46,489 nt of DNA from Convolutriloba macropyga (lineage: Eukaryota). The position numbers and the translations under genes were made by a program. Within the stretch, counting starts at the first letter, position 1; each line of letters opens with the position of its first letter. Positions 12,181 through 46,262 of the stretch are shown piece by piece. The DNA lies in assembly GCF_964194025.1 (NCBI RefSeq), contig NC_134472.1, positions 70,866,001 to 70,912,489 on the forward strand, read 5' to 3'. Under the pieces are notes generated by a model, which was not told the origin of the DNA, did no database searches, and worked only from the letters and a program-made list of their open reading frames with translations.

Positions 12181-12240
12181 CATTTTAGCCCATTTTAGCC
12201 CATTTTAGCCCATTTTAGCCCATTTTAGCCCATTTTAGCC
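12181..12240. repeat. Perfect 10-bp tandem repeat (CATTTTAGCC)x6
   Basis: Read directly from the sequence. Confidence 0.98.
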
Positions 12241-17737: not shown

Positions 17738-18450
17738 TTATTCTAGAATTTCATCAGTTTGCAGAATTAACGTATCACCTGCATATTGCCAGAGTTGTGT
17801 ACTGCTATCAGCGTAAGTATACATATCAATTATATAAATATTGAAAATGAGTGGACAGAGCACCGTACCTCGAGGAACTCCCCTGTCAATTCTAAGTTCA
17901 TCATATGCAATATTCTTTAAATCTACCGCTTGCATTCGCTCGAATAAAAAAGTTTTAATTAATTGCATTGCAGAGGTCTCAAAACCTAGTCTAAGCGGTT
18001 GTTTTGAGTATTGAATGGTTTATTGAATCAACAGCCTTAGAGATCTATCAATACTGCTGAAAAAATGTGTTGATCTGTTTCTTTCCTAATTAATTCAGTA
18101 ATATACCTTATGGCGTCTATGGTAGATCGTTTCTTTCCAAAACTGTATTGATTTTTACTGAAAAGTTTGTTTTTGTTCAGGTAACCATTGATTTGTTCCC
18201 GCAAAAAAATTTCTATGATTTTGGAGAGGAACGATGTGATTGACATCGGACGGTAATTGTTTGGTTCTTAAGGATCATCAATTCTAAAAAGTGGTATTAT
18301 ATGCACTTTTTCAAGTTTTTTTTGGGAATAGGAAAACCGGATGCAGTTGTTTATCAAACGTTGGATATGTGGCACAACGCTAGGACAAGAGTCCTTAATG
18401 GCCCATGAAGGAATTGATGACGGTACCAGTGGCTTGTTTCTTCCCAAAAT
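17738..18450 (-). pseudogene. LINE reverse transcriptase fragment, copy A
   Basis: NYRPMSITSFLSKIIE, QYSFGKKRST, LIDL, RGVPRGTVLCPLIFNIYIID (GVPQG motif), QYAGDT (YADD motif). Confidence 0.9.
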
Positions 18451-18479
18451 GTAATTCAGTGAATCGTTTTAATACCTTG

Positions 18480-19445
18480 AACCATCTTCCCAAGTAAAAA
18501 TTTAACCTCAGTTTGAAGTCTCAATTGATTTTCAATTCGTACACCTAAGTATTTTACCTCGGCTTTTTCAATAATATGAGAGTTGTTAACTATCAAAGTT
18601 TCATTCTGATGTTTTCAGACATTTTTGCTATATTCAGTGAACTCATTTTTTTAGTTTGTTTTTATTTCAATTTCTTTGCAATATTTGACAAGATTATTGG
18701 CGCTGGTAGCTAGTTTTGATCTACTTTCTTCTAGATTTTAATCAGACGTCAAAAATAACGTATCATCTGCATATTGTCTGAGTTGTGTATTGTTATCTTT
18801 GAAAATATAAATATCATAGATATAAAATTTTAAAATGAGTGGACCCCGCACCGTACCCTGAGACACTCCCCTATCAATTCTCAGTTCATCAGATGTAATG
18901 TTCCGTAACACTACCGCTCAGATTCGCTCGAATAAATAATTTTTGGTTAGCTGGATTTATGCGGTCTCCAAACCTAGTCTAACCAGTTCAGTTATGAGTT
19001 TTGTCCGGTTTACTGAATTGAAAGCCTTTGAGAGACCTATCAACACTGCTGAAACAAAGTTGTTTTCATTTGTTTTTTCCCTAATGATTTCAGTAATTTT
19101 CATTATTGCGTCTATGGTGAATCGTTTCTTTCAAAATGTATTTTGATTTTAACTGAAAAATTATTTTTGTTCAGGTAATTCTTGATTTGATCTCGCTAAA
19201 CAATTTCTATAACTTTAGCGAGGCACGGTGTGCTTGACATCGGACGGTATTTGTTAGGTTCTTCAGGGTCACCAGTGTTAAAAATTGGGATTATATGCGC
19301 TTTTTGAAGTTGTTTTGCAAAATTGCAACACCTGATGCAAATGTTTATCAAACGTTGATCATATGGCACAACGACACGACAGAAGAACCTAATGGCCCAT
19401 GAAGGAAATGATGACGTTTCCAGTGGCTCGTTTTACCCAAATATT
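18480..19445 (-). pseudogene. LINE reverse transcriptase, copy B
   Basis: KAHIIPIF, KYRPMS, LIGLSKAFNSV, RGVSQGTVRGP, QYADDT, VKYLGV; contains in-frame stops. Confidence 0.9.
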
Positions 19446-20119
19446 TAATTTGCATCTTTGTGATCTTTAAGACAAATGAACCGAAAATTAAATTATTATG
19501 GGTTATTATTGAAAATTGAGGGAATTTTGTATTTTGACAAGTGTATTTGCCAAGATCGAAAAATCTGTAATTAAGCAGATTTGCAATTTTCCTGGGTTCG
19601 GGAACAAACTCATTGAAAACGTTTCTTATACATTATATGTTTGGCTTTACTTTGTTGGAATTATGAATTTCAATAACAAACAAATAATTTTTTCTGTTCT
19701 GTCGTTTTTAGCAGCACCAATAAGGTTTTTATGAAATCTCCTAAAATTATTATTGTACAACTGACTTTTCAAGTTCTTGAGTTTAAAAATTGTTCCTAAG
19801 TTTTATCATTTAAATATATGTTTTTTTGTTCTCTTCTGCTTAGTCTGCTTCAATTCTCATTTCTTATATAGCGAAAGGGCTTTCTGGTTATTAAGAATGA
19901 AACTTCTTGAAGGGAGTATGAAGTTGAAGAGCTATTACAAATGTGTGCGTAAAAACTATCCAATAAAAGATTCGGATGGGAAATTTGATAGAAGCCGCGC
20001 CAATCTGTTGACTCAAGGTTTTTCAAAAATCTGCAATGTTATAACTGTATTCGTTGTAGAACAAATTGATAAATGGTTTTTTTTCTGGTGTTCAAATTAA
20101 AATTCAAAAAAACTTAATT

Positions 20120-24975: not shown

Positions 24976-25970
24976 TGTTGCGGCTGCTCAATAATCTCAG
25001 CGGAACCGATATATCACAGCCTGGTTCTTGAGTTTTACGCCGGCCTGGTTCTTCACAGGGTTCGATTGACTAACAAAATCGCAGAAATAATTAGTCGCTC
25101 GTACGTATTAAAGGACTGTAACTTTTATTTTGTTGATTGAAGTTAAGAAAATCCTTAGTGATAATCTATGTTCAATCTCGCCCTAAAGTTTGTAAGGCTT
25201 CAACCAGTGTTAGTAATTTTGCTAATTTCTCGTTAATTAAGCTCAATTAACTTAAAACTGGCAAAATCTTAAGATCTAGCAAAACTTATCAACAAAGACT
25301 AAAGTTGTTAAAGAATCAAATTTTAGTCAATTTGAGAGCCAACTGCTCTGTATAACAGTTTCTAGTTTCTAATGGCTTTAAATACAATTCGGTTTTACTA
25401 ATCAAACAATTCGGTAATATTAAATAAGGAAATATTTATCATTTATAACATCATTGTTACTTGTTTCTGATTGGTTAATCAAGAAAATGATTTAGGTCAT
25501 TGTTTACATAGTAAATGTCAAATTACTGCATTATCTACTTTTGTTGACATAAGCACTGATGGTTGTTACGTAACTCTAAATGCCTCAAATATACGATATT
25601 TGACCTTTAAAGATCACCTAAAGTATCATAAAATAAACAACTTAAGAAATTTAACAATAAATGACAAAATATTGAAAAATGCCAATTTTGCACTATATAA
25701 GTGCTAATAGCCACACTTGTGGGTCTAATGCTATAACGTTCGTTGGCTCCGTGAGTAGCTTAGAGGTAGCAAAAACCGTGTGCCATGACTTCGTGTTTCT
25801 CAGGTTTTCCTTCCAAAAATCGGGGGAGTGTACAAAATTTCGGTCGCAACTTGTAAAAATTTTCAGTTTTCACCATTTTTGAGTTTTAATTAATTCTAAG
25901 TTTTTTCAGTTTCAAAGGTTAATTCTTGCTGTCTGATGACTTTTGTAGCTGATTTGAAGTGGCGCTAACA
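24976..25970 (-). repeat. BEL/Pao 3' LTR (995 bp)
   Basis: TGTTG...TAACA termini; direct repeat of 31976-32968 with 9 mismatches in the first 100 nt. Confidence 0.95.
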
Positions 25971-25984
25971 TCGCCAGCCCTGTT

Positions 25985-27200
25985 TTAGATCTCGGAAACA
26001 CCATCGTAAGATACTGGCTCTAACTTTACGACTGGCCGGTTCAGTTCTCCAAGTGCCATTTTAACTCTCGCTGATCTCAGAACACCGTCGTTTTCAGTGA
26101 AGATCTCAATGATTTGTCCAAGTTTGTACTCAAATCGTTTCACAGAGTCATCTACTAGCCACACTAACTCACCTTCTTTCAGGTTTCGCACATGTTCTTT
26201 TGACCACTTCGGTCTTTGGTTCCTTTGTGGAAGGTATTCGCGAGTCCATCTTTTCCAGATCATGTCGGCACATGCTTCAGCCGCTTTGAAAGATTTTCTC
26301 AGGTTCACTGGATGGCATGAATGGTGCACTCGCCTTCTCTCGTCCTAGCAAGAACTGATTTGGCGTGAGTGCTGTCAAATCTTCAGGGTCGTCACTTACT
26401 GCTGTCAGCGGTCTTGCGTTGAGTGTTTGTTCCACAAGACACATTGTGGTGCTGAGTGTCTCGTCGGTGAGGCTTCGGTTGTCCAAGATTGCAATCATGA
26501 CCTTCTTGCATTTTTGAACAAGTCTTTCCCTGATTCCACCAAAGTGAGGAGCTCCGGGAGGATTGAATTTCCAAACAATCTTTTTCTGTGCTAAGTCACT
26601 TTCTATCTTAGCTTTGTACCACTCGTTCATGAATGCCTTCAGCAAGTTGGTTGCTCCAACAAAATTTGTTCCGTGGTCGCCGATGGTGGTACTTGGTTAG
26701 CCACGTACTGCAATAAATCTTGTCAGAGCAGCTAGGCATGACTCGGTGTCCAATGATTGTGCGACTTCGATGTGTACTGCTGTCGTTGTCAGGCAAGTAA
26801 AGAGGTAGCACCACTTTTTCAAGTTACGTCGCAGGAACTTCACTTTAAGGGTTTCGATGTAGTCAACACCGGTATGAGTGAATGGGAACACATGTTCATC
26901 AAGTCGTTCTCGAGGTAGATCCACCATCGGAGGGTGAATCGAGTTGGCGTTTTTGTGTCTGCATTTGATACATCTCGACTTGATTTTCCTTAATGCATTT
27001 CTTATTCTGATGATCCAGTGCTTTTGTTAAAGCATATTTCTCACATATTCTGTGCCATCATGTAGGTTGTCACGATGTGCTTTCTCTAACAGAATTTGTA
27101 CGACTGGATGTTTCGCGGTTAACAATATTGGGTTGTTTTGCATTGTAATCAAGGTTTGAATGCTTCAGTCGGCCTTTCACTCTAATTGTTCCACCTTACT
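25985..27200 (-). pseudogene. BEL/Pao integrase (frameshifted)
   Basis: HHCC remnant (RCIKC), DLPRERL, PFTHTGVDY, FTCLTTTAVHIE, FNPPGAPHFGG, LNARPLT, WKRWTREYLP, RPVVKL. Confidence 0.92.
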
Positions 27201-28860
27201 CTATGAAGGGTGACAGTTTGGTGATGTTCAATAGTTTGGAGATTTCTTTACTCCTTGCTATCGACATTGAAACATTCGGGAAGCTTTCGGTTTGAACAAA
27301 TCAAAACAGTATTTGTGCTGCTTTATGGATTTCGTCTGCTTTGAGGGGTCCTCTCTGCTTGACCGTAAACCTCATTTAGTAGGCAATGAAGTTTCTAATT
27401 CTGTTGACGGTACTGTATCGTCTCCAGTCAATTAGTTGGTCTAGTTCAGTTTCTGTGGCTACACTACTAGTAACTTGCTCAGCTTCAGCTTCGTTCACTT
27501 GGCACCACAGCTTTCGCCACTTTTATTCATCTGTCTGGAGCCATGCCGGCCCGTTTAACCACCTGAACTCCTTGAGACCTTCGATGGACATCACTTTTGA
27601 GCCAATATCTGCTGGGTTTTCGATGCCTTTGAAATGTCTCCATTGATTCATGGAAGAGTTTTCCAGTTTTTCTGCTGCCCTGTTGGCAACAAACACTTGC
27701 TGTTTCTTTTGAGCTGACTGTAACTACTGTAAGAGTGTTGATGAATCGGTCCAGTGATAAATTTTGTTAATACTGACATCATGTTCCCTCAAAATCTGCC
27801 TCCTGAGACGAACTCCGTAGACTGTGGCTTGAAGTTCTAACTTCGGAATCGTCGTGTGTCTGATAGGTGCTACACGGCATTTTCCTATTACGTAGGTGAA
27901 TTTCAACGTTGCTTCGTCCTGCAGATATGCCACGATGCACATCGCTTGTTCTGAAGCGTCTGTGGAAATGTGTAGTCTCAAATTTGTACAACCATTTTCA
28001 AAACAAAGTCGATTCATCGACATCATCCTTATTTCTCTCAACTCAGAGCACCAATCACTGAATAGTTTAGGTGTTCTGCTGACAAGTCTTTGTCCTATGC
28101 TTGTCCCATTGTTGCCCAAATGCTTTTGAGTAGAAACCGCAATTTTACCGTGAAGGGTGAGCATATCCCAATTGGGTCGAACATTGCTGAGACAAAAGAT
28201 AGGACAAATCTCTGAGTTACTTTTTCTGGAACTTCTTGCTCATTTCCACGACAGACTATGAGACCATCTGTGTCTATATTCCAGTTCAGTCCAAGTATTG
28301 AGGATGAGTGTGGCTCAGCCTTGAACGTTTTTACAACTTTCGTTGATCTGTCTGGGATTTGTGACTTGACTTCTTCGTCAGTCGTTATCCATTTTGTCAA
28401 ATTGAATCCACCTTTGCTGAGGATCTCTCTGATTTTCTGGTGTGTTGCAAACTCTTCTAAGTTTCTTGAGTTTGTGAGGGTTGATGACAGGATGATGTGG
28501 CAACTACCATTGAAGCTTGTCTCTGGTTTCGTTCAGTTCAACTTGTTGGACTTTGCAGACATAACCAGCTTTGACGTCAGTGTCAATGGTTTCCTGGGAA
28601 CGTTTTCGCAATATATCATCTTTCTCTAGGCGTCAGTCTAAGGGCATGGGTTGCCCCAGAGCAGAGTAGAAGTTATTTGGTAACTTCACTTCCTCTTCTC
28701 GCCATAGAAGTCCAACTTCGTATCTTTCACCTGTGAATCGAGTTGTTTGCTCCAATGTCTTGATCGCTCGTTGCTCGTCTTTTGAAAGTCCGGTGACATC
28801 ACAGTTTGAGACATAGAACTCGATATCCCAGTACTTACTCAACTGGTTGGCTACTTTATC
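27200..28860 (-). pseudogene. BEL/Pao RT flanks and RNase H (RT core deleted)
   Basis: RYEVGLLW, LPHHPV, RRVCN joined directly to GGFNLTKW; then ILGLNW, FDPIG, TDASEQA, GKCRVAP, TIPKLELQA, WTDS. Confidence 0.9.
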
Positions 28861-31800
28861 ATCTGCAATGGATTTTGCTGTTGTGGCAAGAGCTGCTGCC
28901 TGTTTCGCTGGTAGCAGACCACGTAAGGCCCATTCTATTTACGATTTCACTGCCCATGGTGCAGTTTTGTCGTTTGACTTCTTGAATTCTAATGGGTGAT
29001 GGATGTTGTAGCAGTCTGGTGCAAGAATTTCTTGAACTTCGTTTAGATTGTAGCTCTTATTTGGCAAGTTCTTCAGATGGAAGTCTGATTTGGAAGTCTG
29101 GTCACCCAACTTCAGTTTCTCGAGAACATAGAATTGCACTGTTGTCAATGGTTGAGACTTCTTGTGCGTTGAAACCACTATCGACACTATTTCCGTCTTG
29201 ACATCTTGTGATTCTTGGATTCCTGCTACTCACAAAGATGCTTTTCGGCCTTGCAGCTGCAGTGTAGATACAATTGACCTGTCCACGAATGAGATTGAGG
29301 ATCTCGTATTACACATTGCCAGCACGCTCAGGCTGTGGTTTCCAATCATCAGTTTTACACGCACTACAGGGATTCCTACTTGTGCGATCATTGTTGCTAC
29401 TGCTGTCGTAGCATCTGAGGCACTTGTTGTAGCCTCCTTCTTTGAGAAGTCAGTGTGCTAAAGTTTGTTGCGCAAAATTTTGTTGTCGTTCACATTTGAG
29501 CACGCTGCAAGTTCTGTTTTTGCAATCCTTTGTTTGAACGATGACCACGTCTCAGGAAAATGAAACACAGTCTGAACTTCTGCACATGTTCTCGTCGTTC
29601 ATTCAGCTTCCTTGATTTGAATTTCTGGCAACTCCAGATTGCGTGCTGTCTATTTTGAACGTACATAGAATCATCAACATTGGATGCAAAAGTATTAGTT
29701 TGCTGTTTCTCACCGTTTTGAAGCTTAGGGTTTGTTTGGGCTAACAAGTCTTCAAGTATGGAAGCAGTTGATTCTAACCATTCTTTGAAAACAATCGAGA
29801 TTGCTGCTAGTGGTCGATGATCCTGTAGATGTCGTACCCACTGCTCTTTAAACTGAGAGGAAAGTTTACTGGTTGCTGAACTCAAAACTCTCCCCAACTC
29901 CAAATCATGCTGAAATCCGAATCGAGTCAAAACGTTAACTCTGTATGTGACTATGTTTGAAAATCGAAAAATGCTACTGGAATCATCGTGTCTAACTGGA
30001 GTATGTGTGTATGTCTTCTTGAGTTGAGATTCAGCAATGACTCTCGGTCTGCCGAAATTTTTGCAGAGAATGTTGCAGGCTTGATAGTATGACTTTGAGT
30101 TGAAACCCAGTCCAGAAATTGCAGCTTTCGCCCGACCAGTGAAGCTAATCATCAGATACTGCATCTTCTCAGTATCGCTCCGCCGCTTTTGATGCACAAT
30201 GACATCTAAAAGATCTGCCCATTCGGGCCACTCCAATGGGTCTCTTGAGAATTCCGTTAGCTTTGTTCCGATTTCTCGCAATCCTCTTGGGTCACCACTC
30301 GGTTGGTAAATTACTTGTGGGATAGCTTGGCTCACTGTTGATTGCTTTTGGCTTTCCATCGATCTGCTGCGAGAATTGTGCTTGGGACTCTGGCTTGTCT
30401 GCCTGTTTTGGAACGCTGACGGTCCTTGTTGCTGGAAGGTCGTCTTGGGCAAAAACGTATGTGGTTCTGTCACCGTAATTGATTTAGGGATTTCTGGTTT
30501 CTTGAGAATACTCGAATCTTGCAGTTGTGCTGAGAAAAGTCCTGCACCTGGTTGGAACAACGGTGTAGTATTCGGGTAGGAGCTGAAACGTTTGTCACCC
30601 CTGTCCTGTGTGACATTCTCAGGAGGTTCGATCACAACATTGGGAGATAGTGGTCGACTAGGGACAGAATGTTGGGCCACTCAGTTTGCCCAGCCTGCAG
30701 TTCTTTCAAGATTGCGTCTTGATCCAACACTTTCTAAGTCGTCTACCTGTGAGCCAGATACTCTTGAACTTCCTTTTGTCAGTTCAATTTCCATGCGCCT
30801 TTGCTCTTCGTCGTCTTCAGCTTTATTTCTTTCGTTTTCGAGCTCTCGTTCATGTTGTCGCAAACGTAGCTCGTCTTCTTGTTGTTGTAACTTCAGACGT
30901 AATTCCTGTTCTTGTGGTTCCTTTCGTCGACGTAGTTTGATTTCTTCACGCTTCTGTTCTAACTATATTTGCCGCTCTTGCAGTTGTTGCTCTGTCTCTT
31001 TCTTAGCTCTTAGGTTTTCTAGCTCCATTTCTTCAATCTGTCGTCTTCTCGATGATCGCGAGTTGGCGATACTGGGTTTTTTTTCTGCTTCCTTGTGTAG
31101 CAGAATGCCTTAAAGAGACCTCGATGTTCTCTTCAGTGTTCTCTGCTGCTCCATTTCCTGTATCAATTATGGTCTCGTTTGGGTCTTTATCACCAGCCGA
31201 TAAGGATGACACTAATGATGTTTGGTTTCCACAATCCTTGCTCTGCCCGTACTGCTCGATCAGGTCTCGATAGTGACTCCTAAAATTGCTGAAATCCACA
31301 AGTTCTCGGGAGCGATATTCTTGCTTTATCGTTTGAATTGATTCTGCGTAGATTTCATCTAGTTTTTCGACTAACCGTTCCACCTGATTACACAATGTCT
31401 TTTTGGAGTCCCTTAAGTTTTCAGTTTTTAACTTCTGCTCCAAACTTGATAGTTCACTCTCAATTTAGTGAGCAGCTTTCACTGTTTTGTATGCTCGAAA
31501 TGTGTCTTCACAATAATCGACGAATTCTGTGCAAAACCTCTCATTGTCTCGGAGAAATGGTATTTCGTCAACTACCTATCTCAAATCTTTGCTCTTTTCT
31601 TCTAACATACGCTTGGTGTCATTGTCGAACGAACGCTTCTGAATACTTTTGTTTTAATAGTGATCTTTGCTGTTTTTTGTTGGCGGCTAACTTGTCGTAC
31701 GTCTCGAGGAAGACTTGATATGCACTGTTGGCTGTCATTGTTTTGTTTTGTGTCAAGTAGGCTTCTTGCTCGGTGAGGCGTCTGGAGAATTTGAATAGGT

Positions 31801-31890
31801 CAGCTTCCTCCTTCTCTAACGTCTTGAGTTGACCACCCGTCTTCTAATCAATTGTTTTCAATTGTCTACTGGGACTTTTGCTGGCCATCG
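28860..31890 (-). pseudogene. BEL/Pao gag and aspartic protease (disrupted)
   Basis: Coiled-coil N-terminus; FSRDPLEWPEW...EKMQYL...GRAKAAI gag core; decayed Cys/His knuckles (HAIWSC, CF..LRRGH); protease site decayed to LAMCNTRSS near 29300. Confidence 0.85.
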
Positions 31891-31955
31891 TAGAGATTTT
31901 GTTCTGGTCCAACACAATGAATCGAAGATTCGTTGCTGATCGCGTTGTTGTTGAT

Positions 31956-31973
31956 GTCCGGGTCGGCGTGCCA
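31956..31973 (-). promoter_or_regulatory. Primer binding site of the BEL/Pao element
   Basis: TGGCACGCCGACCCGGAC begins 2 nt after the LTR-terminal CAACA on the - strand; tRNA identity unresolved. Confidence 0.8.
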
Positions 31974-31975
31974 AA

Positions 31976-32968
31976 TGTTGCAGCTGCTCCAAAGTCCCAG
32001 CAGAACCGATATATCACAGCCTGGTTCTCGAGTTTTACGCCGGCTTGGTTTTTCACAGGGTTCGATTGACTAACAACCTCGCAGAAATAATTAGTAGCTC
32101 GGACGTAATAAAGGACTGTAACTTTAATTTTGTTGATTGAAGTTAAGAAAATCCTTAATGATAATCTATGTTCAATCTCGTGAAGTTTGTAAGCCTTCAA
32201 CCAGTATTAGTAATGTTGCCAGCTTCTCGTTAAGTAGGCTCAACTAACTTAAAACTCGCAAGGTTTTAAGATCTAGCAAAATTTAGCAAAAAAGACTAAA
32301 GTTGCTAAAGAATCAAATTTTAGTCAATTTGAGAGCCAACTGCTCTGTATAACAGTTTCTAGTTTCTAATGGCTCTAAATACAATTCGGTTTCAGTAAAC
32401 AAACAATTCTTTTAAATTAAATAAGCAAATTTTTATCATTTATAACATCATTGCTACTTGTTTCTGATTGGTTAATCAAGAAAATGATTAAGGTCATTAT
32501 TTACATAGTAATTGTCAAATTACTGCAATGCTTGCTTTTGTTGACAAAAGCACTGATGGTTATTACGTAGCTCTAAATGCCTCGAATATACGATATTTGA
32601 CCTTTGATGATCACCTAAAGTATCATAAAGTAAACAACTTAAGAAATTTAACAATAAATGACAAAATATTGAAAAATGCCAATTTTGCACAATATAAGTG
32701 GTAATAATCGCACTTGTGGGTCTGATTTGATAACGTTTGTCGGGTACGTGAGTAGCTTAGAGGTAACCCTAACCGTAAGCCATATCCTCGGATTTTTGGG
32801 TTTCCCTTCCAAAAATTCGGGGGTGTGTACAAAATTTCTGTCTCAACTTGTAAAATATTTCAATTTTGACCGTTTTTGAGTTTTGACGAATTCTAAGTTT
32901 TTTTCAGTTTCGAAGGTTATTTCTCGCTGTCTGATGGCTTTTCTAGCTGAATTGAAATGGCGCCAACA
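31976..32968 (-). repeat. BEL/Pao LTR (993 bp): 5' LTR of the main copy and 3' LTR of a truncated tandem copy
   Basis: TGTTG...CAACA termini; PBS on one side, integrase end on the other. Confidence 0.95.
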
Positions 32969-33380
32969 TCACCGGGCCTGTTTTCGATCTCGGAAACACC
33001 ATCGTAAAATACTGGCGCTAACTTCACGACTGGCCGGTTTAGCTCTCCATGTGCCATTTTGGCTCTCGCTGATCTCACAACACCATCGTTTCCAATGAAG
33101 ATCTCAATGAGTTGTCCCCGTTTGTACTCACAACGTTTCACAGAGTCATCTACTAGCCACACTAACTCGCCTTCTTTCAGGTTTCGCACACGTTCTTTTT
33201 ACCACTTCGATCTTTGGTTCCATTGTGGAAGGTTTTCGCGAGTCCATCTTTTCCAGATCATTTCAGCATATGCTTGAGCCGTTTGGAATATTTTTTGAGG
33301 TCATGGTAGCGTTCACTGGCATGAATGGTGCACTCGCGTTCTCTCGTCCTAGCAAGAACTGATTTGGCGTGAGTGCTGTC
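32969..33380 (-). mobile_element. 3' end (integrase C-terminus) of a second BEL/Pao copy
   Basis: Paralogous to ~25971-26376; encodes LKEGELVWLVDDSVKRCEYKRG...RPVVKLAPV. Confidence 0.93.
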
Positions 33381-33382
33381 TA

Positions 33383-33613
33383 GTGACATTTATGGCATTG
33401 ATAATGAGCATTGAGGATAATTACATTGGGTATACTGGCATTGGGTATAATGACATTGGGTATGCTGGCATTGGGTATAGTGACATTGGGTATGCTGGCA
33501 TTGGGTATAATAACATTGGATATAATGAAATTGGGTATAATAAGATTGGGTATGCTGGCATTGGGTATAATAACATTGGGCATAATGGAGTTGGGTAAAA
33601 TGCCCTGACACCG
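33383..33613. repeat. 15-bp minisatellite (core CATTGGGTAT), partly 30-bp dimeric; probable end of a non-autonomous DNA transposon
   Basis: About a dozen units alternating GGCATTGGGTATAAT and GACATTGGGTATGCT, closing with GCCCTGACACCG. Confidence 0.85.
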
Positions 33614-34109
33614 ATTTACCAAATATTACTAGGTTTATGGATGTCATTTGACAAAACAGCCATTTGGTGACTTGGACGACGAATTAGAAGACACCATTTC
33701 CAAAAAAGAGGCTCCCAAATAAACACCAGAACAAACTGTCGATTAACTTTTTGGTAGGAGGCGCTGGATTGACATGATACATAATACTACGTTTTAGACT
33801 TTTTCCCTGGTCAACTGCATCTTTATTAACCTGCCGCGAAATGCCCAACTTTTTCTTTCTATGAGAGCGGCCCCTTGATAAAAGTGTGCTTTAAAACGCA
33901 ATTGAAGCCCGTGTTCACCGAAATGTTTGTCAAAACAAATGCTTGTGCCTGGTTCTTCAAATAGGGATCCCAGGCCGTTTGTTCGAAGTAAGAGCTGCTC
34001 AAGGGTTGAACTTCCGACGCAACCTTTTAGTGATATAATAATTCCAAAATTTCAATATGAACATTTATTTTTCTTGCATAAATGTGAAGGAAAAAGTTTG
34101 TACATCAAG

Positions 34110-34248: not shown

Positions 34249-35136
34249 GTTACTTATTCACGCCTGAATGCATACATTCGATGTCTGAGTGGTATGTGTA
34301 TATTTAAACAGGTTCAGAAAATTGTCTTGTGTTTGTTAATGATACCAGCCAATGGAAGCATCGACAATTGATTTTGGTGTTGTCCTAATGTTAAGAAATG
34401 AATGATTAACGTTAACCTTATAACAGTGCTCTAGTAAGTTGGTAATCTCAGCTTACTTCTGTTTGAAAGCATCATTACGGAGTCAAAGTTTTTGTAATAC
34501 AGCGATTTCTTTAGGAGCTAGGAGCTGTTGCTCAATGGCATCTATAAGATTGCAAAAAATGATAACATTTCATGGCAACGGATAGATGTTCGTTGCGCTT
34601 TTAATCAAAAGTTGATTTAAAAATGCTGAAAAAATGCGTTTTACAGAATTTAAAGAAGACAGATAACAGAGCGAGACTTATTCGGCCTTATTTTTCATTT
34701 TTTAAATTCTGCTAGCCCGAGTTGAAATTTCTTTCATACAAGGATCATATATGGTTTCATACTGTCCATATTTGTTTTCTTAATACGATCTTAGTATCAA
34801 TACCAAGAATCATTCATTATTTTTATTGATAAAACATCACTTATATGATTCCCCGGCATCACTTAGTGATCCGCCAAAAACACTGCTGTGCATAACGTAT
34901 TGCAAAATTGGTTGTTAGAGACCAAGTCATTTTATAAGACTAAAGTTTTCGTATTCCTTTGTATACCTATAAAAGCCAATTTATTCCTATAAATGATTAT
35001 TTTTAGAAAAATGCTATTTGTTTTGGATCTAAGTTTTATTTTCATTTCTAAATACGTATTAAATCTGAAGTTACTTTTAGTACAGCCAAATAGTAAAATG
35101 TGGGCTGCATAAACCATATAATAAATTTAATTGCCC

Positions 35137-35679
35137 TGTAGAAATTGAAACTTATAGGAAAACGAAAGTTAAAGAAATTTGAACTAACCTTTAAATTTTC
35201 TCGATGAACCGTATGAACGGAAATCGAAATTAGACCAAAGAGAAACGTAGTTATTTGTACAGATCAAGATTAGAGTTGTGATTTGATTCTCTGAAACTAA
35301 GTTGGTACCAAATTTGAGAGAAAGATATTATTCGGACCTGATAATCTTACTAGACGAAACACCTTGAAGGTATACTAAAATTATTATTCAAAGATTTAGG
35401 CATGAACACTTGAACTGGAACGCATTTTTCGGACCTTTCATAATACGTACGGATATACAAAACCCTTAGAAATCAGGCCACAGTTGGGGCCCGTAAAGAG
35501 TATTTCCCCAAACGATTAGGCTAAATTAAGACCGCAAGACTCAATTATCTCAAGTTATGAAAAGATAAGCTAGAACAAACACGGCTAATTTTTGAGTCTT
35601 TTTCTTAACTCAATTTCCTGATTCTAAATTCAAAAATTTTCTACAAATTGTTGGGATTTGATTAGGGAAATTCCCGACA
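35137..35679 (+). repeat. Putative 5' LTR of the Gypsy element
   Basis: Starts TGTAGAA and ends CCCGACA one base before the PBS; 35640-35669 is identical to 44931-44960. Confidence 0.65.
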
Positions 35680-35680
35680 T

Positions 35681-35698
35681 TGGCGACCACAGATGGAT
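35681..35698 (+). promoter_or_regulatory. Primer binding site of the Gypsy element
   Basis: TGGCGACCACAGATGGAT follows the terminal CA; complementary to a tRNA ending GUGGUCGCCA, compatible with an Arg tRNA (not verified). Confidence 0.85.
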
Positions 35699-36133: not shown

Positions 36134-37050
36134 ATGGCAAACGCAAACAACAACGCCCAGCAGCAAATCGTAGTGGCTGCTCCACCTTTAACTCCCTTAC
36201 GTTATCCGAGCAGAGATTTCGACTGCTTCAAGCGATAGACACGCCATTTCTAAGCAATGTCTCAGGCATGACGCGAGGCGGCGAGCGGTCCTCCCCATTT
36301 GCTTGAACAACTACGCACTTGACGAGTACTACAACCTCCCGAATCAGTACTTCAATCAAGTACAAGGACAACCAGCCCCATTGATCGAGCGTGTGCTCAA
36401 TGCCCTCAACAACCGAATTAGAGATTTTCCTAATGCGAGGAGTGCCAGAACTGAGTTCAAGAACCTCCAGCAAAATGAAGGGGAGAACATACAAGAGTTC
36501 TCACGAAGAGTCCGAAAACTGGGCGAAGCAGCAAACGCCCATTTGAATGCATCCGGAAGGCAAGAAGCAAATAATGACGCTTTTTTGAAAGATCATTGGA
36601 CAGTGAGATACGATAAAATCTCCTCAAAGAAGATCTGGATACTTTCAATGTATCCGCGCAAAGAACCATAGAACTCGAAGCAATTTCGAAAAATGAGAAC
36701 GCCCGATACCGACCAAGACGGACAGGACACGTGATTTGGACGCAAGGCTGCGACAAAGAAAATGGGAGTAAAACCGAAATCCGAGATATATCGACGAATG
36801 TGGGCATGGGACTCAGGGACTTGATGGAAAATCAGATCAGGAGTTTCAACAAATTGTTGGAACAGCAGAATCCTCACACGAAAATCATGGAAAAGATTCT
36901 AGATACACAGAGCCTGTTTTTAACAGAAATTGCTCCAGCCCCTAGAGCGTCGCGCAGACCTGCCAGAGTTGATCGGAACAGAAACGTACCATGATATCTT
37001 GGTCAGGACTGGGGGCACTTTGCGAGTCGATGCCCGAAACGAAGCACTAC
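36134..37050 (+). pseudogene. Gypsy gag (disrupted)
   Basis: ATG at 36134 (MANANNNAQQQ); capsid-like FKNLQQNEGENIQEFSRRVRKL; decayed knuckle GHFASRCPK. Confidence 0.85.
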
Positions 37051-37099
37051 CCCAAAAAGACAACAAGATAGAAACGTCGAAACACAGCCAGTTGTTAAG

Positions 37100-39065
37100 A
37101 TGATCATGCAGAGAACAAAACGACATGAGATCTTTAACAGTGCAAGTATCGAGAATTCTAGTGGTATTTTTGGATCTACTGTTTATGTTGATGCAAAACT
37201 GAACGGAAAGATGCACAGGGCACTGCTCGACACAGGCAGTATTGTGAATATTATACTGAACAAACATACAAACTTTATTCAACACCAATGTTACTGTCTG
37301 ACTTCCACGATACAGTCTTATCTGCAACAAACGACCCGTTACGTATTCTAGGAAAGTTCGCCGGAATTCTTGCATTCGGTCCGGGAACGGTTGTTCAGAC
37401 GGAATTTCTTGTCACCCCGGACACAGACGTACCGTTGATCTTAGGGACACCTATATTGCAAGAAAATCAAATGTCGATTGACTTTCAGTCACCGCAACAA
37501 ATGATGGGCACAGAAAGCAGTACAGTCAATTTGAAAGTTCTCTGGAAAACAGAAAATCCGGACAAGTCAAGGCGTGCGGCGCGGAGATTGCGTTTCAATA
37601 CCACAGACCTGGAGAAATAGAAACAAACAATTGTCCCATGCCAGCATCAGAGGACGAGGTGGAACAAATTTGCAACCAGGTGAAATCAGACTCGACAGAC
37701 AACGAAACTGGAATTAAGATAATGAGTACCGTTGCCACTTTTTGGGATGTTTTTGCCCTAAACGATGCAGAGTTGGGTCAGACACGTTTAGTGGAGCACG
37801 AAATTGATACTGTAGACGCTGGCCCAATTAAACTTTCTCCCTATCGATTAGCACCCGGGAAGATGGCAGTTGTGAAACAGGAATTAGACGATATGCTCTC
37901 CAGGAATATCATCCGGCCATTTAAAAGCCCGTACAGTGCGCCAATTGTACTTGTAACAAAGAAAGACGGCAGCAATATATTGTGTGTAGACTTTACGAAA
38001 CTCAACGAGGTAGCTAGAAAAGATGCTTTCCATTACCCAGAATCGATCAAGTCCTTGATCATCTTCACGGAGCTAAAGTTTTCTCGAGCCCTGATTTAGC
38101 CTCCGGATACTGGCAGGTCCCACTAGCAGAGTCAGCGATACCAAAAACTGCATTCGTTACCCCTGACGTTGGTCATTACGAGTTCCTGCGACTACCATTT
38201 GGACTGTGCAATGCCCCAGGCACAATTCAACTGTTTGATGACAGCAATCTTTAACGAGTACTTAGTCAGTTTTGTTCTCATATTTCTGGACGATTTTCTA
38301 GTCTTCAGCAAGTCAGAGGAAGAACACGAAAAACATCACCGAATTGTGTTTGAAGCCCTTTGGAAAGCAAACTTGAAACTTAAGCCAAAGAAGTGCAAAT
38401 TATACCAAAACTCAATTTTGTACTTGGGGTACAAACTCACTGCCGAAGAAATTTCACCCGATGAGGGAATAATCAGAGCCCTGAAAGAGTGGAAAAGACC
38501 GGAAAAATTACAGAAGTGAAATCGTTCATTGGATTCTGCAGTTACTATCGTCGATTCGTAATGGACTTTGCCGGCATAGAAAAACCACTACATGAGATCA
38601 CGAAGAAGAACCGGAGATTCACCTGGACACCAGATTCTCAAGCTGCTTTCGAGATTCTGAAAAGAGCAATGATCGAGAGCACGGTTTTGTCGAATCCAGA
38701 CTGCAGCTCAGCTTTCGTGCTAAATACAGACGAAAGTGACAACAGTTTGGGAGCAGTACTCTCGAATGTCATAGATGGGGTTGAGTATCCAGTGGCGTTT
38801 GCAAGCAGATTGCTACAACAATCAGAATGTAAATATTCAACAACGAAGCGGGAGGCACTAGCTGTAATTCAGGCAATGAAGTGGTACAAAACATTCCTAT
38901 GGGGTACAAACTTTGTGTTCAGAACAGACCATGCTTCACTTAAATGGCTGTTCAGGCAAAATAACGATAGAATGATTTCGAATGTTACAACGGCTTCAAG
39001 AATTTGACTTCCAGGTAATTCAACGTCCTGGTGAGAAACATGGAAACGCAGATGGATTTTCACGA
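37100..39065 (+). pseudogene. Gypsy protease, reverse transcriptase and RNase H (frameshifted)
   Basis: ALLDTGS; [45 protein letters not shown]; TDESD..LGAVL, ASRLL, REALAV, TDHASL, NADGFSR. Confidence 0.95.
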
Positions 39066-39992
39066 CAGTGTAGCCAGTCTCCCGATTTGACTGAGAAGGA
39101 GAAGAAAGAGATATTCGGCCAAAGCCCCCCAGCTGAAAAATTAGGCGACGCACTGGGGCATATCTAAATGGTGACTTCACCGGAATCCTACCCAGATTCA
39201 TCAACAGATATAGAACTAATCCACGCACCAGCCCCCAAAATTCAAATGGCAAAAACTCTAACGTTCATCAGGCATGAGTACGAAGATGAGACTACAGAAT
39301 GGATTGAAACGGAGACGGATTCAGATTTCGGACCTCAGAACACAGAGTGGGACTCCGAATTACCCCATCAAAATAAAACACTACCGCAGGACAGCGACAA
39401 TGAGGACGAATATGAAATTCCTTACAGTATGAGCTTCCGGAAGCTCTATGAAGCTGTGTCCAAAGAACGGGCATCCGGAGAAAAATTTAGACTTGACTGG
39501 TCGAACGACAAGGAGAGTGATTAATCCGGCCAAACCGAGGTTGGTGAGACCCAGATGACCACAGAATCTGTCGATTTCAACCAAACCGAGATAGAAGTTC
39601 CTGAAACTGACGATGGAAGTAACTACTGCAGCCATAACAATTTTCGAAGAGTTCAAATGACACCAAATCTAGGTCAATCCAGCAAACATGAAGCAAACCT
39701 TCCCAACAACAACGCGAAATCAATGGAAATTGTTCTAGAGGAGGGCAGAGAAGCGGCAAAAGAACATCTGGCGCAAGACCCTGCAATTAAACTTGTTTTT
39801 CAAAGCGCCAATGCTGACAAAACCGGCAAGCAAACGTCCCTTGGCAAACTTAACTTGAAGAAAACAGCAGCTATTGCAGCCGGAGAGGATGCGCGGGCAC
39901 TCTGGTGTGTGTGGAAACAACTAGAATTGGCAGAGTGAGTTCTCTACCGAAAGTGGCTTATTGAGGGAACAGATTCTAATGTCAGACAGTTT

Positions 39993-41255
39993 GTGGTGCC
40001 CAAAAGTGTACGGAAAAAAGTGCTGGAACAACAACACGAGTCTAAGATATCAGGGGGACACTTCGCTTTTCAGAAGACACTCGACAGATCTAGGCAACGT
40101 CTCTGGTGGCCAAATATGAGCAAAGACATCGAGAGGAAATGTGAAAACTCTTTGACGTCTCAGTCGCAATCTACAGCTCGGAAAAAACTTAAAGCACCAT
40201 TGCAGAAAATCAACGTAGGAATCCGTTTCAACAAAATTGCCGCAGACATCCTGGGGCCAGTGACCAAAAAAAAAATAGGAGGGTACAAATATATAATCGT
40301 ACTCACTGACTACTTCACAAAAATTGTAGTCAGTACACCCTTGCAAAACACAACTGTTGAAGCCGTGGCAAGAGCAATCTTGGAAAAATGGATTCTTCTG
40401 TTTGGGGCCCCAGATTCAATTCACACTGACTGGGGCTCAAACTTTTGCAGTGAACTTATCTTGGAACTCTGCAAGCTTTTCGGAATAGAAAAAACAAAGA
40501 CCTCGCCTTACCACCCTCAAGGCAACGGCATGGTTGAGCGACACAACCAGGTCATTGCTGATGCAATTTCGAAATACCGTGCGGGAAATCCCAACACTTG
40601 GGACGAGATGCTCCCATATCTGAGCTTCGTCTACAACACAACAGTGCACAAAAAAACAGTGCATACACTCTTCTCATTAGTTTACGGACAAGAGTGCAAA
40701 TACCCAATCGATTTACTCCTACCTAGGACGCCAGGTCACGAAATTCAAAGTTATGAATTCACTCGATGGCTGGAGGAACAATTTCTTGAAGCACACATGA
40801 ACGCCAGAGAAACCTTGGGATGCAATCAAGAGAGGCAAAAAGACCGATACCACAAAGAAGTCTTTGGAGAAAGCTACCGCAAAGGTGATCAAATTTGGCT
40901 CTTCGCTCCCCACAAAGCCAATTCGAGAAAGCTCTTTTTGCCGTGGGATGGCCCCTACGTTGTGTTAGAGAAAATTTCGGATGTTCTTTACAAGATATCT
41001 AAAACGGGGAGTTCTAACAAATGGCAGATTGTACACTACAGTAGGCTGAAACCCGTGAAAGAGGAGCCTAATCAACGCAGGATATTTAGTCGACCTTCAA
41101 CAGGAAGACGACAGCCAACTGGAGAAGCAGTAGAAGACTTGGAAGAAACAGCAGGTCTTGGACTTTTCACAGAAAAAACTACAAGAAGACTTTCGTCGAA
41201 ACACGGAAAATCCTCGAAAGACCTCGAGATACAAATGGATGGAGGAAGAAGATGA
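39993..41255 (+). pseudogene. Gypsy integrase (420-aa open stretch; C-terminal tail frameshifted, continuing to ~41595)
   Basis: H..GGH zinc-finger remnant, ADILGP, TDYFTK, HTDWGSNF, YHPQGNGMVER, GPY/F motif (WDGPY), VHYSRLKP; no chromodomain seen. Confidence 0.95.
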
Positions 41256-42099
41256 TCTCTTCCACACTCTGTTTGTGGAACAGCAGAAAACTTCTGCGAT
41301 TAGACGAGAAGCAAACCACGAGATGCCGGACATCGAGGAATTACAGGCAACTGAACTGACGGGACTTGATGAGAGAGAGAGCATGACAGAAGCCAACCTG
41401 GAACCCTCTCCCCCAAGTATCGAGAAAACGGACCCACCAGAGACAACGCATCAACACAGCACTACCCAGGATAAGACTTTCAATACAGAGTTCAAAAACA
41501 TCCTTAGACCTCATAAGGCGAAAGGGTTGAAACCGACAACAATGACACTCAATATAGAAACACCGAGCCCAAGCCTACTCTCTAACATGGAATGACGCCC
41601 CAAGCGGGCAAAGCGATTCCCCAAAAGATAAGGAATGGACTACGAATGAAAACAATTTTCATAGCGCACATGACGAACCTACTAACAAACTCGACTCAAA
41701 ACTTTGAAACGTTACCAAAATGTACCGTGAACACTTAGATAGAGTGAATTACTGTGGACTAATATAATTTTCTTCTTCCAAGCCACTCGCTAAACACTCA
41801 AAAAAAGCGATGAAAAGGTTCGAAATGTCTTGATAAAGACTTTAAATAGCACTTTAAGCATAGTAACATTCGACTATATACGATAATCATATAGATTTTT
41901 CTTAGTTTAATTAAGGTCTCCAGAGCATTAAAAAAAATTTCTGAACAAAGCAAATGAGTCATGCAAAAAAACATAAAGTTTGAGCACCAGAACCAATTTG
42001 AATACAAAACCTAGTTCCAAAAAATAATTGCACAGTTTATTTAAACAAAACTGAAAACTCGCCGCAAGTGCAGTTTACCCTAACTTTGGCAATATTTAG

Positions 42100-44065
42100 A
42101 TGAAGTGGTGCTATCTATTTCTTGTTATCCGTTTGACTCTAGCAGATGAAGTGACAACTCGAGCAAACATTGTGTTCGTCTCACGGATTCCGATGGCTCT
42201 AGCTGATTCAATTGAACTGATAGAGGTTTCAGTGCACTTTCCTAAACCCTTGGACATTGACTGGAGCGCTTTTAAAAAATTTTTGAAAATCCTCAAAGAC
42301 ATGGAAATTCACGCGTGGAGAGAGACGCAGTGGGTATACTGCAATAACCAAAAATTAAACGGCATCCCGGAAAACAGTCAGAACACCCTGACCACATCGC
42401 TACAAAAAGACATTTCGGAGATCGAAGAAGAAAGGACTCAACTGATTCAAGATATGAAGATTTTTGCAAATTCAACGGAGCTCTTGAACAAGAAGAGAAC
42501 GTCAATAACTTTGCTTGCAGCGGGAGCTACCATCGCACTTCTTTTGGAGCCCATACTGGAAAAACAGCTTGCAAAGTGCTCTCCATCTTTCATCTTTGTC
42601 AGGACTCAGAAGAAAAAATGCGACAAATTACAAGGCACTCGGACCGCACGGACTTCGAGCTGCACCATTTATCGAGCAACACAGATGACGCAGTACACAT
42701 CTTGAGCAACAAAAATTAAAAAACAGCAGGAACACATGAAAACTTTTTGAACTATACAGATGGGAACTTCGGAACCGTAGAGCAAGCCATTAACAACCTT
42801 GAACACGATATGAAACAAGTACAGCGGGCCCGAATCTGCGACCACAAGTGGAGCGACGTGTTCACCTTTTTTCTCAAAACGCAAAGCGTGGTCAATGACC
42901 TTTCCTTCGCAATAGTGTCTCTTCATTCAGAAGTGCAATCCTTTAAGTATGAACTCAAGCAATTCAATAACAAACTTCGGCAGGCTTTCCAGGAGATGTC
43001 AAACGAAAGAATACTCTCAAGACATGTTGAACCAGACAAACTGCTAGGAATCCTACAACATCCTCCTTTCCATCACAAAACGATGTCAATACCACTCCCT
43101 TATGTTAGTCTCTACTATGAACTTGAGCTACTTCGTAATGATTTTATTGGGGACAATGGGCTCCTCTTAAAAAACGAACTCCCGACGTCAAGTCAAAGCC
43201 CCATCCACAAAGTATTTAAAGGAATATCCCTTCCGCAACCTATTGCAAATTCAACTACAGCGTCAGTGCTTGTACCCGAGCGTGACTTGTCGTCTCGGAA
43301 GCTACGACTAACTTTGCTGAAGTTGACGAAGCACAGATTCTTTTTTGTCAAGGTTCGAAACGACTAAAACAACACTGTTAACAACCCTTCTCAATAACTA
43401 GAAATCAACAAGCCGGTTGTCTGGTTAGTGTATTTTTTGGTCACGAAGCAGCTGTTTTAAAGATCTGTAAATTTGATATCATCCACCTTCCAATAATGCC
43501 TACTGCAACCTATTTAGCAAATTCAAAATTTCTTATTTCGTCAGCAACCACAAAATACTGGATAAATGAAATCACTGATAAATCCTTAAAGAGCAGTAGA
43601 TTGAACGGATGTCGAAGTTGCATCATACAACCTCCTTATAACGGGAGAACTGAGATATCTAATGGAGGCTTGGTTTTGCGCCCCTCAACGGACAACTGTC
43701 AGAACGAAACTGGGCTGGTTATGACCGTAGGGCTCAACCCTCTACTTGGGGAAGCGTTCAAACTGCCGATACCAGAAAACCACGAGCTGAATTCCTCAAG
43801 TACCACAATGGACTACCAAAGAAATGTAATAGAACATGTCAAAGTCGAACTACAAGCAAAACCACCACTTGAAATAGACACCACAACGTTCAAAAATTTG
43901 GTACGAGATTTTCATCGCTGCAATCAAGAGCGACAAAGACAAAACACAGCGGAAGGAACTGCTAATAATGAGGTAGACTTTTTAGTACTGTTTTTATGGG
44001 TTATCACTTTTTTCTCAACCCAAATAATTTTACTCTGGAAATGGAAAAAACTATGCATCAAATAG
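42100..44065 (+). pseudogene. env: Envelope-like class I fusion glycoprotein (frameshifted, ~650 codons)
   Basis: Signal peptide MKWCYLFLVIRLTLA; basic site NKKR followed by hydrophobic TSITLLAAGATIALLL; heptad-like helices; Cys-rich region; N-glycosylation sequons; TM FLVLFLWVITFFSTQIILLW plus a basic tail. Confidence 0.85.
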
Positions 44066-44113: not shown

Positions 44114-44968
44114 TGTAGAATAGACTTAGTTCGATTCTAGCTTTGATTTAGTTAGGAATAAGGTCTGTGGTAACTTTGCAATCTTTAATTTATAAGTCTA
44201 GTATTTTCATAAGTTAGAGTTTGGCTTTAATTAAAAACATAACATAGCTACTTAGGAACATAGGTGGTTTTACAGAGATCAATGACTATTAGGTTAAGTT
44301 AAGATCTCTCAGGACTTTGACATCAAGAGAGTGACTGCAGACACCTTCAACACGAGAAATTCTAAGCGTATCAATCGCCGCGCTTCTTTGGAGACTGAAT
44401 AAAGAAGCCACTCTGAGGGTAGGGTTGCCTGCTCGTGGAAGACTTGGCGAGTAAGACTAACCCACGTAGTATGGATGGGCGAACCAAGTAGACACTTAAC
44501 ACGGTCTGCAGTAACCCTGAAGTGCCTGAGGAGCAATAGATCTTGCGTTCTTTTTTCAAGTGGTTGATACTCGTCTGGCCGGGTTGTGGAGTGAACTACG
44601 ACGAACGACGCTTCCTCTTCAACTTTAGTAGTCTTTAGGGTCACAGATTGATCTCTTAGTATAAGTTAGTTGCATTGAGAACTTGGTATACTTCTCAATC
44701 ACAGTACCACCTATTTTGATAATTGTTTTCTTTTTTCCATACACTTAGCTTATAGTTGAGGCTAGAGAACTCTGAATCCAACTTTATCATTACTATTTTT
44801 AAATAGTGCTGCCTGCAATCTGAATCTTAGGAGTAATGGAAGGGCCTGGTATAACCCTCTCTGTTATATAGGATAATAGGCTTGCGAAGTTACCACTACT
44901 CTAGTTCTCTTTTTTTTGAATATTCAAGTATCTACAAATTGTTGGGATTTGATTAGGGAATCTCCCCA
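44114..44968 (+). repeat. Putative 3' LTR region of the Gypsy element
   Basis: TGTAGAA at 44114, AATAAA near 44398, terminal block shared with the 5' LTR. The start is uncertain and there is no clear PPT. Confidence 0.5.
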
Positions 44969-45336
44969 CCCCAGTTTTTCAAATTCGGCTTGCCCTCTGA
45001 TTACATTATACTGGAATTTTTGGCATCAGTCAATGTTTTATGTACCATACGTGACCTTGTATCCTTTCCTAGAAGTTTCACCAGAATGAGAACTATACAG
45101 TTTTCGGCTATCAATTTTTTAAATGATTTTCGTATGATTTCCAAGAAATCATATATGATCTTTGTATGACTACTAAGCAATCATGCAAGTCATATATGAC
45201 CTAGTTTGACTACTAATATTCATATATGACCTGCAATGAAATCAAAAACATTTGTATGATCGGTGACCCGGTAAACGGCCATTTGGTTAGATTGGCGTCC
45301 TCTGTTGCTTTAAGAGTGCTTTTTTTTTACTAAGAG

Positions 45337-45963
45337 CCCGGGTCACTCATCATAAAAAATTGCATGATTTCATACAATGTCATAGGTCATTCTTAGTGAT
45401 CGTACTAGGTCATATATGATGTGTATGATGCTTTCCTGCAAATTATACAGGGATCAGACAAAACCTCTAAAAGCCAAAAAATTTTATCTCTTTTATTTTC
45501 GGAAGAAGCTGAAAAATTTCTTGGAAATTAAACGAAGTCATATATGACATAAAAACTTTGACTGGTGCCACAAATTCCCGTATCACAAATACTGATAACA
45601 GTATTGTGTACGATTCCTAGTAATCATCCGGGCCAAAGTGAGCAAAAGAGTGCAGAGAGTGTAAAAGATTACAGACAGGAGTGTAAATGCATAATAATTT
45701 CTTAAAATTACACTCGTAAAATACTTTTTTCTACTAAAAAGGAGTGGAATACGCATCAGACCCTAATCCCCACTAATTAGGGGTGGATTAAGGTTGAAAC
45801 CTCGGCCCGGGCACACTAATATCATATATAGGTTCCTGCTGATCATACAGGGTTTATATTTAATTTATTTGGTCTCATAATAGGATCGTACTTAGAAATT
45901 GAGTATGGACAGAATGAAATCATATATGACCCTTGTCTGAAATCAGAGAAACTTCAACCCGTG
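45337..45963 (-). mobile_element. Non-autonomous DNA element copy B, inverted relative to copy A
   Basis: CCCGGGTCAC end mirrors 45190-45271; 45866-45963 is the reverse complement of 34716-34805; ~180 bp extra segment between CCGGGC repeats at ~45628 and ~45807. Confidence 0.72.
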
Positions 45964-46085: not shown

Positions 46086-46262
46086 TATGCGCCCACCGGG
46101 AGGATTCAACATGTCCGGAGGTGGAATCACGAGCAGACCAGGAATGGGAGGAACAAGTGGGATGTTTGGGGGAGGGGGAGGGGGAGGAGGAATGAGTAAT
46201 TCAATGGCAATGATGGGCAGACCCCAATCGGCCCAAATGATGGCACCCTCCTTCTCTAGTAG
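46086..46262 (+). CDS. Exon of the host gene, Gly/Met-rich low-complexity segment (SMRPPGGFNMSGGG...MMAPSFSS)
   Basis: Strong TTTCTATTTGCTTTCAG acceptor and AG|GTACGT donor; its phase-2 start completes the AG left by the 34248 donor (AGT, Ser). Confidence 0.85.

Follow-up and report, generated by a model that had tools for sequence, protein, structure and literature searches.

A decayed F-type env gene of a Ty3/gypsy element in an acoel genome and its intact relatives, predicted class I fusogens

In the accessible text of Chary and Hayashi (eLife 2026; PMC13524379), 1512 Ty3/gypsy elements with an env gene are described across most animal phyla, F-type and gB-type ENV being about equally common, and echinoderms and sponges are reported to be without such elements. 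Outside the insects, Ty3/gypsy elements bearing an F-type env are already known across most animal phyla (PMC13524379), and hence the combination of gag, pol, and an F-type env is no surprise. The same text describes the bridge of the ancient errantiviruses as RNase H and a 'mini' domain (a helix and three small strands), whereas that of the insect errantiviruses is a duplicated pseudo-RNase H. In Oikopleura, the Env of Tor3b/4b is described in the available text of Henriet et al. (2015; PMC4402516) as a furin-cut membrane glycoprotein having an N-[L/V]-G motif with aromatic residues on either side, an F-x-G tripeptide, and seven cysteines; env is expressed there from an internal promoter without splicing, and an acceptor site next to the env ATG is reported for Tor3a. 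LTR retrotransposons predominate in acoel genomes and make up half of the Symsagittifera roscoffensis genome according to the available text of PMC9911081. Six acoel-related terms did not occur in the seven supplementary files of PMC13524379, nor did three of them in its main text, and Xenacoelomorpha were not among the host groups given there. Furthermore, our literature search (subscription papers lay outside its coverage) found no report of env-bearing elements in acoels, and the term 'env' did not occur in the texts, supplements excluded, of PMC9911081 and PMC6451197.

We analysed a stretch of 46,489 nucleotides from Convolutriloba macropyga (hereafter, the window, to which all coordinates refer) and found in it a decayed copy of a Ty3/gypsy element on the plus strand at approximately 35.6–45.0 kb. 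Its features are given below; P0333 is the nearest intact gag-pol relative (1691 aa in one frame).

35608–35679, plus strand: terminal remnant of the 5' LTR, ending in CA; the only part in common with the 3' LTR.
35681–35692, plus strand: tRNA-Arg-like primer binding site (PBS); 11 of 12 nt complementary to the 3' end of tRNA-Arg(UCG/UCU), as given in supplement 1 of PMC13524379.
36134–37140, plus strand: broken gag in which a degenerate CCHC zinc knuckle lies near 36990–37035; weak Retrotrans_gag match (E 0.008) and 37% identity to P0333.
37180–39179, plus strand: 5' part of pol with protease, reverse transcriptase, and a single RNase H, containing several frame changes and stops; 48–66% identity to P0333.
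39180–39668, plus strand: acidic insertion of about 160 codons in the bridge between RNase H and integrase, which P0333 lacks.
39669–41595, plus strand: 3' part of pol with the bridge 'mini' domain, H2C2 zinc finger, integrase core, p58 C-terminal domain, and an acidic tail; 63% identity to P0333.
41596–42099, plus strand: AT-rich spacer between pol and env; GC 0.27–0.35 over 41700–42149 versus 0.41–0.53 on either side.
42100–44065, plus strand: F-type env pseudogene, by translation and comparison with intact relatives.
44114–44989, plus strand: 3' LTR with approximate bounds, behind a purine-rich tract; from the sequence and from contig joints (44986 to 35677).

The gene order is therefore LTR end, tRNA-Arg-like PBS, gag with knuckle, protease-reverse transcriptase-single RNase H-integrase, AT-rich spacer, env, and LTR. 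This domain order of pol together with a tRNA-type PBS is that of Ty3/gypsy elements (Metaviridae). Indeed, Pfam analysis bore out the preliminary description, in which the locus had been called a Gypsy element, with matches to RVT_1 (E 4e-15), RT_RNaseH_2 (E 2e-27), and the integrase domains Integrase_H2C2 (E 1e-15), Integrase_p58_C (E 2e-12), and rve (E 3e-11). No tRNA gene was found in the window. In tblastn with P0333, the matching pieces broke off at 39179 and restarted at 39669, and the insertion between these positions was covered by contigs of other copies.

The env region had been described preliminarily, by joining three frames, as an envelope gene with the layout of an F-type fusion protein. 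Three-frame translation and comparison with the intact relative P0012 (695 aa) confirmed this layout, except that the window copy has extra stops, a degenerate cleavage motif, and a shortened tail. Three env segments of the window were 78%, 72%, and 66% identical to residues 1–152, 154–396, and 399–654 of P0012, respectively, with E values of 1e-79 to 1e-122, a similarity far above chance. The ATG at 42100 is followed by a hydrophobic N-terminal stretch corresponding to a signal peptide, and a basic motif appears about 133 residues in, after an F2-like subunit. Downstream are a hydrophobic fusion peptide from 42502 (Kyte-Doolittle 1.88), a two-cysteine loop at 42570–42599, and a transmembrane segment at about 43979–44035 (Kyte-Doolittle 2.39). 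Long helices with heptad character, the sequence blocks named in the preliminary description, and beta-rich domains with a Cys cluster were also recognised. The frame changes near 42560 and near 43290, and in-frame stops are additionally located at 42717–42719 and 43379–43381; this env copy cannot make a full-length protein any more. As to the proposed cleavage site, the basic motif is present, but it deviates from the R-x-[K/R]-R pattern, which five of the six close relatives covering the site fit. The frame stops about 40 residues short of that of the relatives, and the C-terminal tail of the relative had no significant match in the window. In the Pfam search, none of the four env fragments of the window gave a significant match, and hence the assignment of the env to a family rests on its intact relatives.

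When one env fragment was used as the query, two proteins were retrieved among 760 candidates, and their clusters had 25 and 6 members. In the 25-member cluster of P0012, five of the 15 members listed were 628–695 aa long and 92–98% identical to P0012. The second intact Env family is represented by P0018 (702 aa), which is 48% identical to P0012, and both families keep full-length frames and all ectodomain cysteines. Natural intact relatives span 680–702 aa, the nearest being 66–78% identical to the window segments; given the identities of the three segments to P0012, the window copy belongs, by sequence comparison, to a sister family of an intact, multi-copy env family. A search of 1.84 billion representatives yielded 425 proteins at E ≤ 0.001, including 132 at E ≤ 1e-10. 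Hydropathy peaks were observed at 134 and 623 in both P0012 and P0018, with corresponding peaks in the window, and the intact relatives have 6–7 N-glycosylation sequons. Accordingly, the signal peptide, the hydrophobic peptide after a basic site, and the C-terminal transmembrane segment of the class I F-type layout were all found.

The proposal that the env is of the F-type class I was upheld by the intact relatives, which match Baculo_F, paramyxovirus F, and chuvirus/baculovirus F-type proteins. P0018 passed the Pfam cut-off for Baculo_F (PF12259) with 32.7 bits versus 24.1 (E 4e-8); P0012 did not reach it and had no significant Pfam match, and Baculo_F matches at E ≤ 0.1 were obtained with four of the 20 aligned family members. 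The profile of these 20 members matched the PDB 'fusion protein' chains 9w4d/9w4c (E 2e-12), which we take to be baculovirus F, the virus being unnamed in the match. The AlphaFold2 model of P0012, predicted from a 90-row alignment (pLDDT 82.5, pTM 0.74), has long helices at 167–300 and 566–651 and beta-rich domains in between. When this single-chain model was searched with Foldseek, 219 PDB matches at E ≤ 0.001 were obtained (best E 1.4e-9), and among the matches listed all were F proteins of paramyxo- and pneumoviruses, with low TM-scores of 0.20–0.31 to the solved structures. In BFVD, the best matches were glycoproteins of chu-like viruses and baculovirus F (E 1e-20 to 1e-16), led by the glycoprotein of Hubei myriapoda virus 8 (E 1e-20, TM 0.47) and including a granulovirus F (E 1.4e-17). 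The sequence identity between the model and the viral matches in PDB and BFVD was only 8–15%. The VIA search gave F proteins at Z 8–9.7 over 208–414 residues; it adds little because helical bundles of no relation to them scored equally well (Z up to 10.5 across about 150 residues). The first ESM Atlas match was Fusion_gly (0.96), with a recognition value of 1678 that is below the tool's mark of 2300. In terms of homology, we regard the assignment to the F-type class I proteins as secure. The F fold of the intact relatives is predicted from the models, and by analogy with known class I proteins we infer that these Envs would form trimers and fuse membranes.

We also examined the lineage of pol. 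A quick 75-row tree was built from RT/RNase H (the window and the 74 of 83 candidate proteins that were long enough, with no published env-bearing reference among them). In it, the window and P0333 were joined (99) within a 16-row clade (100) of nameless or mislabelled sequences, which stood apart from the named proteins of spider, fish, amphibian, tick, nematode, and sea cucumber. The model of P0209 (pLDDT 82.7), which belongs to the same cluster as P0333, has one RNase H. After it come helices at 321–374 and strands at 379–382, 385–391, and 398–403, and then the integrase zinc finger; the window aligns at 62%. Judged against the accessible text of PMC13524379 without superposition, this corresponds to RNase H and a 'mini' domain, and a bridge of the 'ancient errantivirus' grade is thus predicted by the model. 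The duplicated 'pseudo' RNase H of five strands, characteristic of insect errantiviruses, was not found in the P0209 bridge, which has only three short strands. Likewise, the tether and second RNase H of lokiretroviruses and Retroviridae were not found in the window and P0333, each of which has a single RT_RNaseH.

Some members of the pol clade carry other domains. In P0216, P0221, and others, a different bridge insert was seen, which by eye resembles a macro-type domain, with no Pfam match at E ≤ 0.01. A GDSL/SGNH hydrolase domain follows the integrase in P0215 (Pfam E 5e-12) and P0218, and was also found in the genome contig L001 (minus strand, about 450–830). Two of the clade proteins with this domain are under bacterial MAG labels and are probably contaminating animal DNA.

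Being an env-containing Ty3/gypsy element with an F-type ENV, the element falls within the operational definition of 'ancient errantiviruses'. It shares with them, as far as described in the accessible text of PMC13524379, the gag-pol-env order, a Ty3/gypsy pol, the F-type fold, a furin site, a hydrophobic fusion peptide, and the RNase H and mini-domain bridge, and supplement 1 of that paper gives a tRNA-Arg PBS for several annelid and rotifer elements. It differs from the elements surveyed there in its Xenacoelomorpha host, its non-intact copy, and the extra acidic insertion in the bridge. In common with Tor4b, as described in PMC4402516, there is a non-coding space between pol and env; unlike Tor3b/4b, an acceptor-like site adjoins the env ATG here, as in Tor3a. 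In 25 of 68 wider relatives, the last Cys cluster is preceded by an N-[L/V/I]-G motif like the one in the published description of Tor3b/4b; the subfamily of the window (the window env, P0012, and P0018) lacks it. With insect errantiviruses (Drosophila gypsy, ZAM, and Idefix) and baculovirus F, the element shares a homologous Env (Baculo_F in P0018), the precursor layout, and a likely spliced env; it differs from the insect elements in its longer fusion peptide with a Cys loop, in having no duplicated 'pseudo' RNase H, and in a gag with a CCHC knuckle. The Env of lokiretroviruses, according to the available text of Wang and Han (PMC7947760), is also similar to paramyxo- and pneumovirus F and has an RxKR site. 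Those elements are, however, from vertebrates, are sister to retroviruses, and have a tether and a second RNase H, whereas the element here has a single Ty3/gypsy RNase H.

Other copies were examined using contigs of three runs from one study with one species label, one of which may be the source of the window itself. Many copies, differing from one another, were represented in these contigs across gag, pol, and env; contig depth is not a copy number, and the genes were not ranked by it. In the three runs, contigs joined 44986 to 35677, and hence the 3' LTR type precedes the PBS in other copies. The element family has LTRs, and the 5' end of this copy is altered. Indeed, only 35608–35678 and 44898–44969 were alike in a local alignment of the LTR ends, and the upstream LTR parts were at the level of shuffled sequences (score 29 versus a mean of 30). 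The upstream approximately 450 nt of the 5' end are a different multi-copy sequence, either another LTR type or a repeat (35160–35679 compared with 44114–44989). Either replacement or truncation of the 5' end followed the insertion, or this end was misassembled, and no target-site duplication was definable at this copy. A joint of 41081 to 43539, found in one contig per run and with only 25 nt on its short side, hints at an env-deleted copy. No contig bridging pol and env was present among those listed. Loci with env relatives were confirmed for none of the 90 candidates in viral contigs and none of the 557 in metagenome contigs. The RNase H motif specific to the clade was found at one locus in genome contigs, namely L001 (5.3 kb, the end of gag and pol), a contig that ends before any env could appear, and at none in two other contig collections. 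An intact pol and an intact env were not found together at any locus, and the linkage of pol and env is seen in this window only.

The surroundings of the element contain further repeats. A decayed BEL/Pao element lies on the minus strand at 24976–33380. It has 111 relatives at E ≤ 1e-20, including, as the only named one, a Convolutriloba macropyga protein that is 70–75% identical over three pieces; this protein is 89–91% identical to a 150-member cluster, which matches the BEL/Pao element of the window at 74–87%. A direct repeat of 1.4 kb in this element (88.6% identical) takes in the integrase C-terminus and the LTR, which suggests a tandem remnant sharing an LTR. Two tandem decayed fragments of about 1 kb, 78% identical and non-LTR reverse transcriptase-like, lie on the minus strand at 17737–19450, and three diverged tandem copies of about 500 nt lie at 14111–15585. 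Tandem arrays of 15-nt and 10-nt units were seen at 33378–33617 and 12167–12246, respectively. The Ty3/gypsy element is adjoined by a MITE-like high-copy repeat at 45175–45433 with inverted arms of about 95 nt (74% complementary), and related pieces are located at 34718–34797 and 45876–45960. No clear host gene or exon was recognised in the window; a possible host exon at 46086–46260 is Gly/Met-rich, with GT-AG-like borders and low-copy sequence.

The preliminary description had taken both the fusion peptide and the knuckle remnant in gag as signs that the env may have been acquired independently. We defined the Cys loop as two cysteines 5–11 residues apart after the hydrophobic peptide and found it in 44 of 50 aligned relatives covering the region. 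Among the six without the loop, four have a short fusion peptide, which is the insect and baculovirus pattern, and two are apparently frameshifted or misaligned. In a quick Env tree of 38 rows, the loop-bearing proteins formed a 33-row group (SH-aLRT 97), within which P0012 and P0018 were nested in a 4-row subclade (SH-aLRT 98). The fusion peptide therefore does not point to a separate acquisition. The knuckle remnant itself is real, with 36995–37150 aligning with the CCHC knuckle of P0333 (PF00098, E 5e-8), but the argument drawn from it is not supported, the knuckle being complete in this nearest gag-pol relative. The Cys loop is not mentioned in the accessible text of PMC13524379, whose figure supplements may show it. 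An independent capture would mean that this RT lineage obtained its F gene from an exogenous chuvirus-, baculovirus-, or paramyxovirus-like virus, apart from the described env-bearing Ty3/gypsy clades. The 16-row clade of the quick 75-row tree (SH-aLRT 100, stem 0.6) agrees with such an event in containing no named animal element, as do the viral glycoproteins among the best predicted-structure matches and the conclusion in the text of PMC13524379 that several Ty3/gypsy lineages contributed. Capture fits poorly, however, with the nesting of the Env among 33 diverse Cys-loop proteins, with the presence of the loop in 44 of 50 relatives and, in 25 of 68, of the N-[L/V/I]-G motif resembling that of Tor3b/4b (PMC4402516), and with the low identity to viral proteins. 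The nesting only weakens this explanation because the 33 proteins are known from their sequences alone, and we consider the capture unlikely.

It seems similarly improbable that the env came by exchange from a different retroelement family, in this host or in a related one, with differing histories of pol and env and a possibly recombinant copy. Only about 70 nt are common to the two LTRs, which is not expected from reverse transcription alone, the contig cover of the internal region is thinnest at the spacer before env, and exchange of env within a host is discussed in the available text of PMC13524379. Nevertheless, the divergence from the nearest intact relatives is about the same for env (66–78% identity) as for pol (48–66%), and in contigs of other copies gag, pol, and env are covered alike and this PBS is joined to the 3' LTR type. 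A third explanation, that the intact Env relatives are syncytin-like fusogens domesticated by the host and the window copy is a dead source element, draws on the two families, 48% apart, that both retain full-length frames and all ectodomain cysteines. Acoels also have syncytial tissues. On the other hand, many copies of 92–98% identity, mixed with fragments on different contigs, indicate a mobile family, not a single-copy host gene, and thus domestication appears extremely unlikely.

Taken together, the window very probably contains the decayed env of an acoel gag-pol-env Ty3/gypsy element, the intact relatives of which are predicted F-type class I fusogens that likely aid the entry of particles into neighbouring cells. 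With regard to expression, a branch-point-like motif at 42079–42085 is followed by YAG directly before the env ATG. In the internal region, 29 of 263 YAG sites were preceded by such a motif, and only one of the 29 was directly followed by ATG; the test was post hoc, and this acceptor-like site is a weak hint only. A second acceptor-like site, with a branch-point-like motif, a long pyrimidine run, and AAG, was seen in the spacer at 41755–41783. By analogy with described elements, it is slightly more probable than not that the env mRNA is formed as proposed for Tor3a, by cis-splicing from the leader; an internal promoter of the Tor3b/4b kind, lying in the spacer, is less likely, and spliced-leader trans-splicing would be improbable. 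The last route is considered because 30.2% of the genes of the acoel Symsagittifera roscoffensis are trans-spliced to a spliced leader according to the available text of PMC9911081, and a partial precedent is the subgenomic RNA of Cer1 in C. elegans, which has an SL1 cap according to the available text of PMC3315495.

From what is established about class I fusogens and about the Tor and gypsy Envs, we infer the following steps for an intact element of this kind. A separate env mRNA would be produced, most likely spliced at the acceptor adjoining the ATG, and the signal peptide would direct Env into the ER, where it would be N-glycosylated and then form a trimer. A furin-type protease would cut after about residue 133, and the hydrophobic peptide released in this way would insert into a membrane, with the conserved Cys loop as a brace. 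Refolding of the two heptad regions would then merge the membranes, and the element would probably be carried from the soma to the germline.

The acoel host, the 16-row RT clade without named members, and the splice-acceptor-like site at the env ATG may be new, and the element probably extends the env-bearing Ty3/gypsy kind to acoels. The combined proposal of a first Xenacoelomorpha lineage of F-env Ty3/gypsy elements, with an RT clade separate from the published env-bearing clades and an env mRNA formed by spliced-leader trans-splicing at the ATG acceptor, is very unlikely to hold as a whole. The Cys-braced fusion peptide marks a large and mostly unannotated F-type subfamily that is usually missed by Pfam. 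A gap in the host tree would be closed by an acoel example; as Xenacoelomorpha are unsurveyed, such an example would therefore allow a test of the claim that the joint inheritance of env and pol dates back to before the bilaterian split. Furthermore, an enveloped family with recently intact copies may represent a possible route of spread from the soma to the germline.
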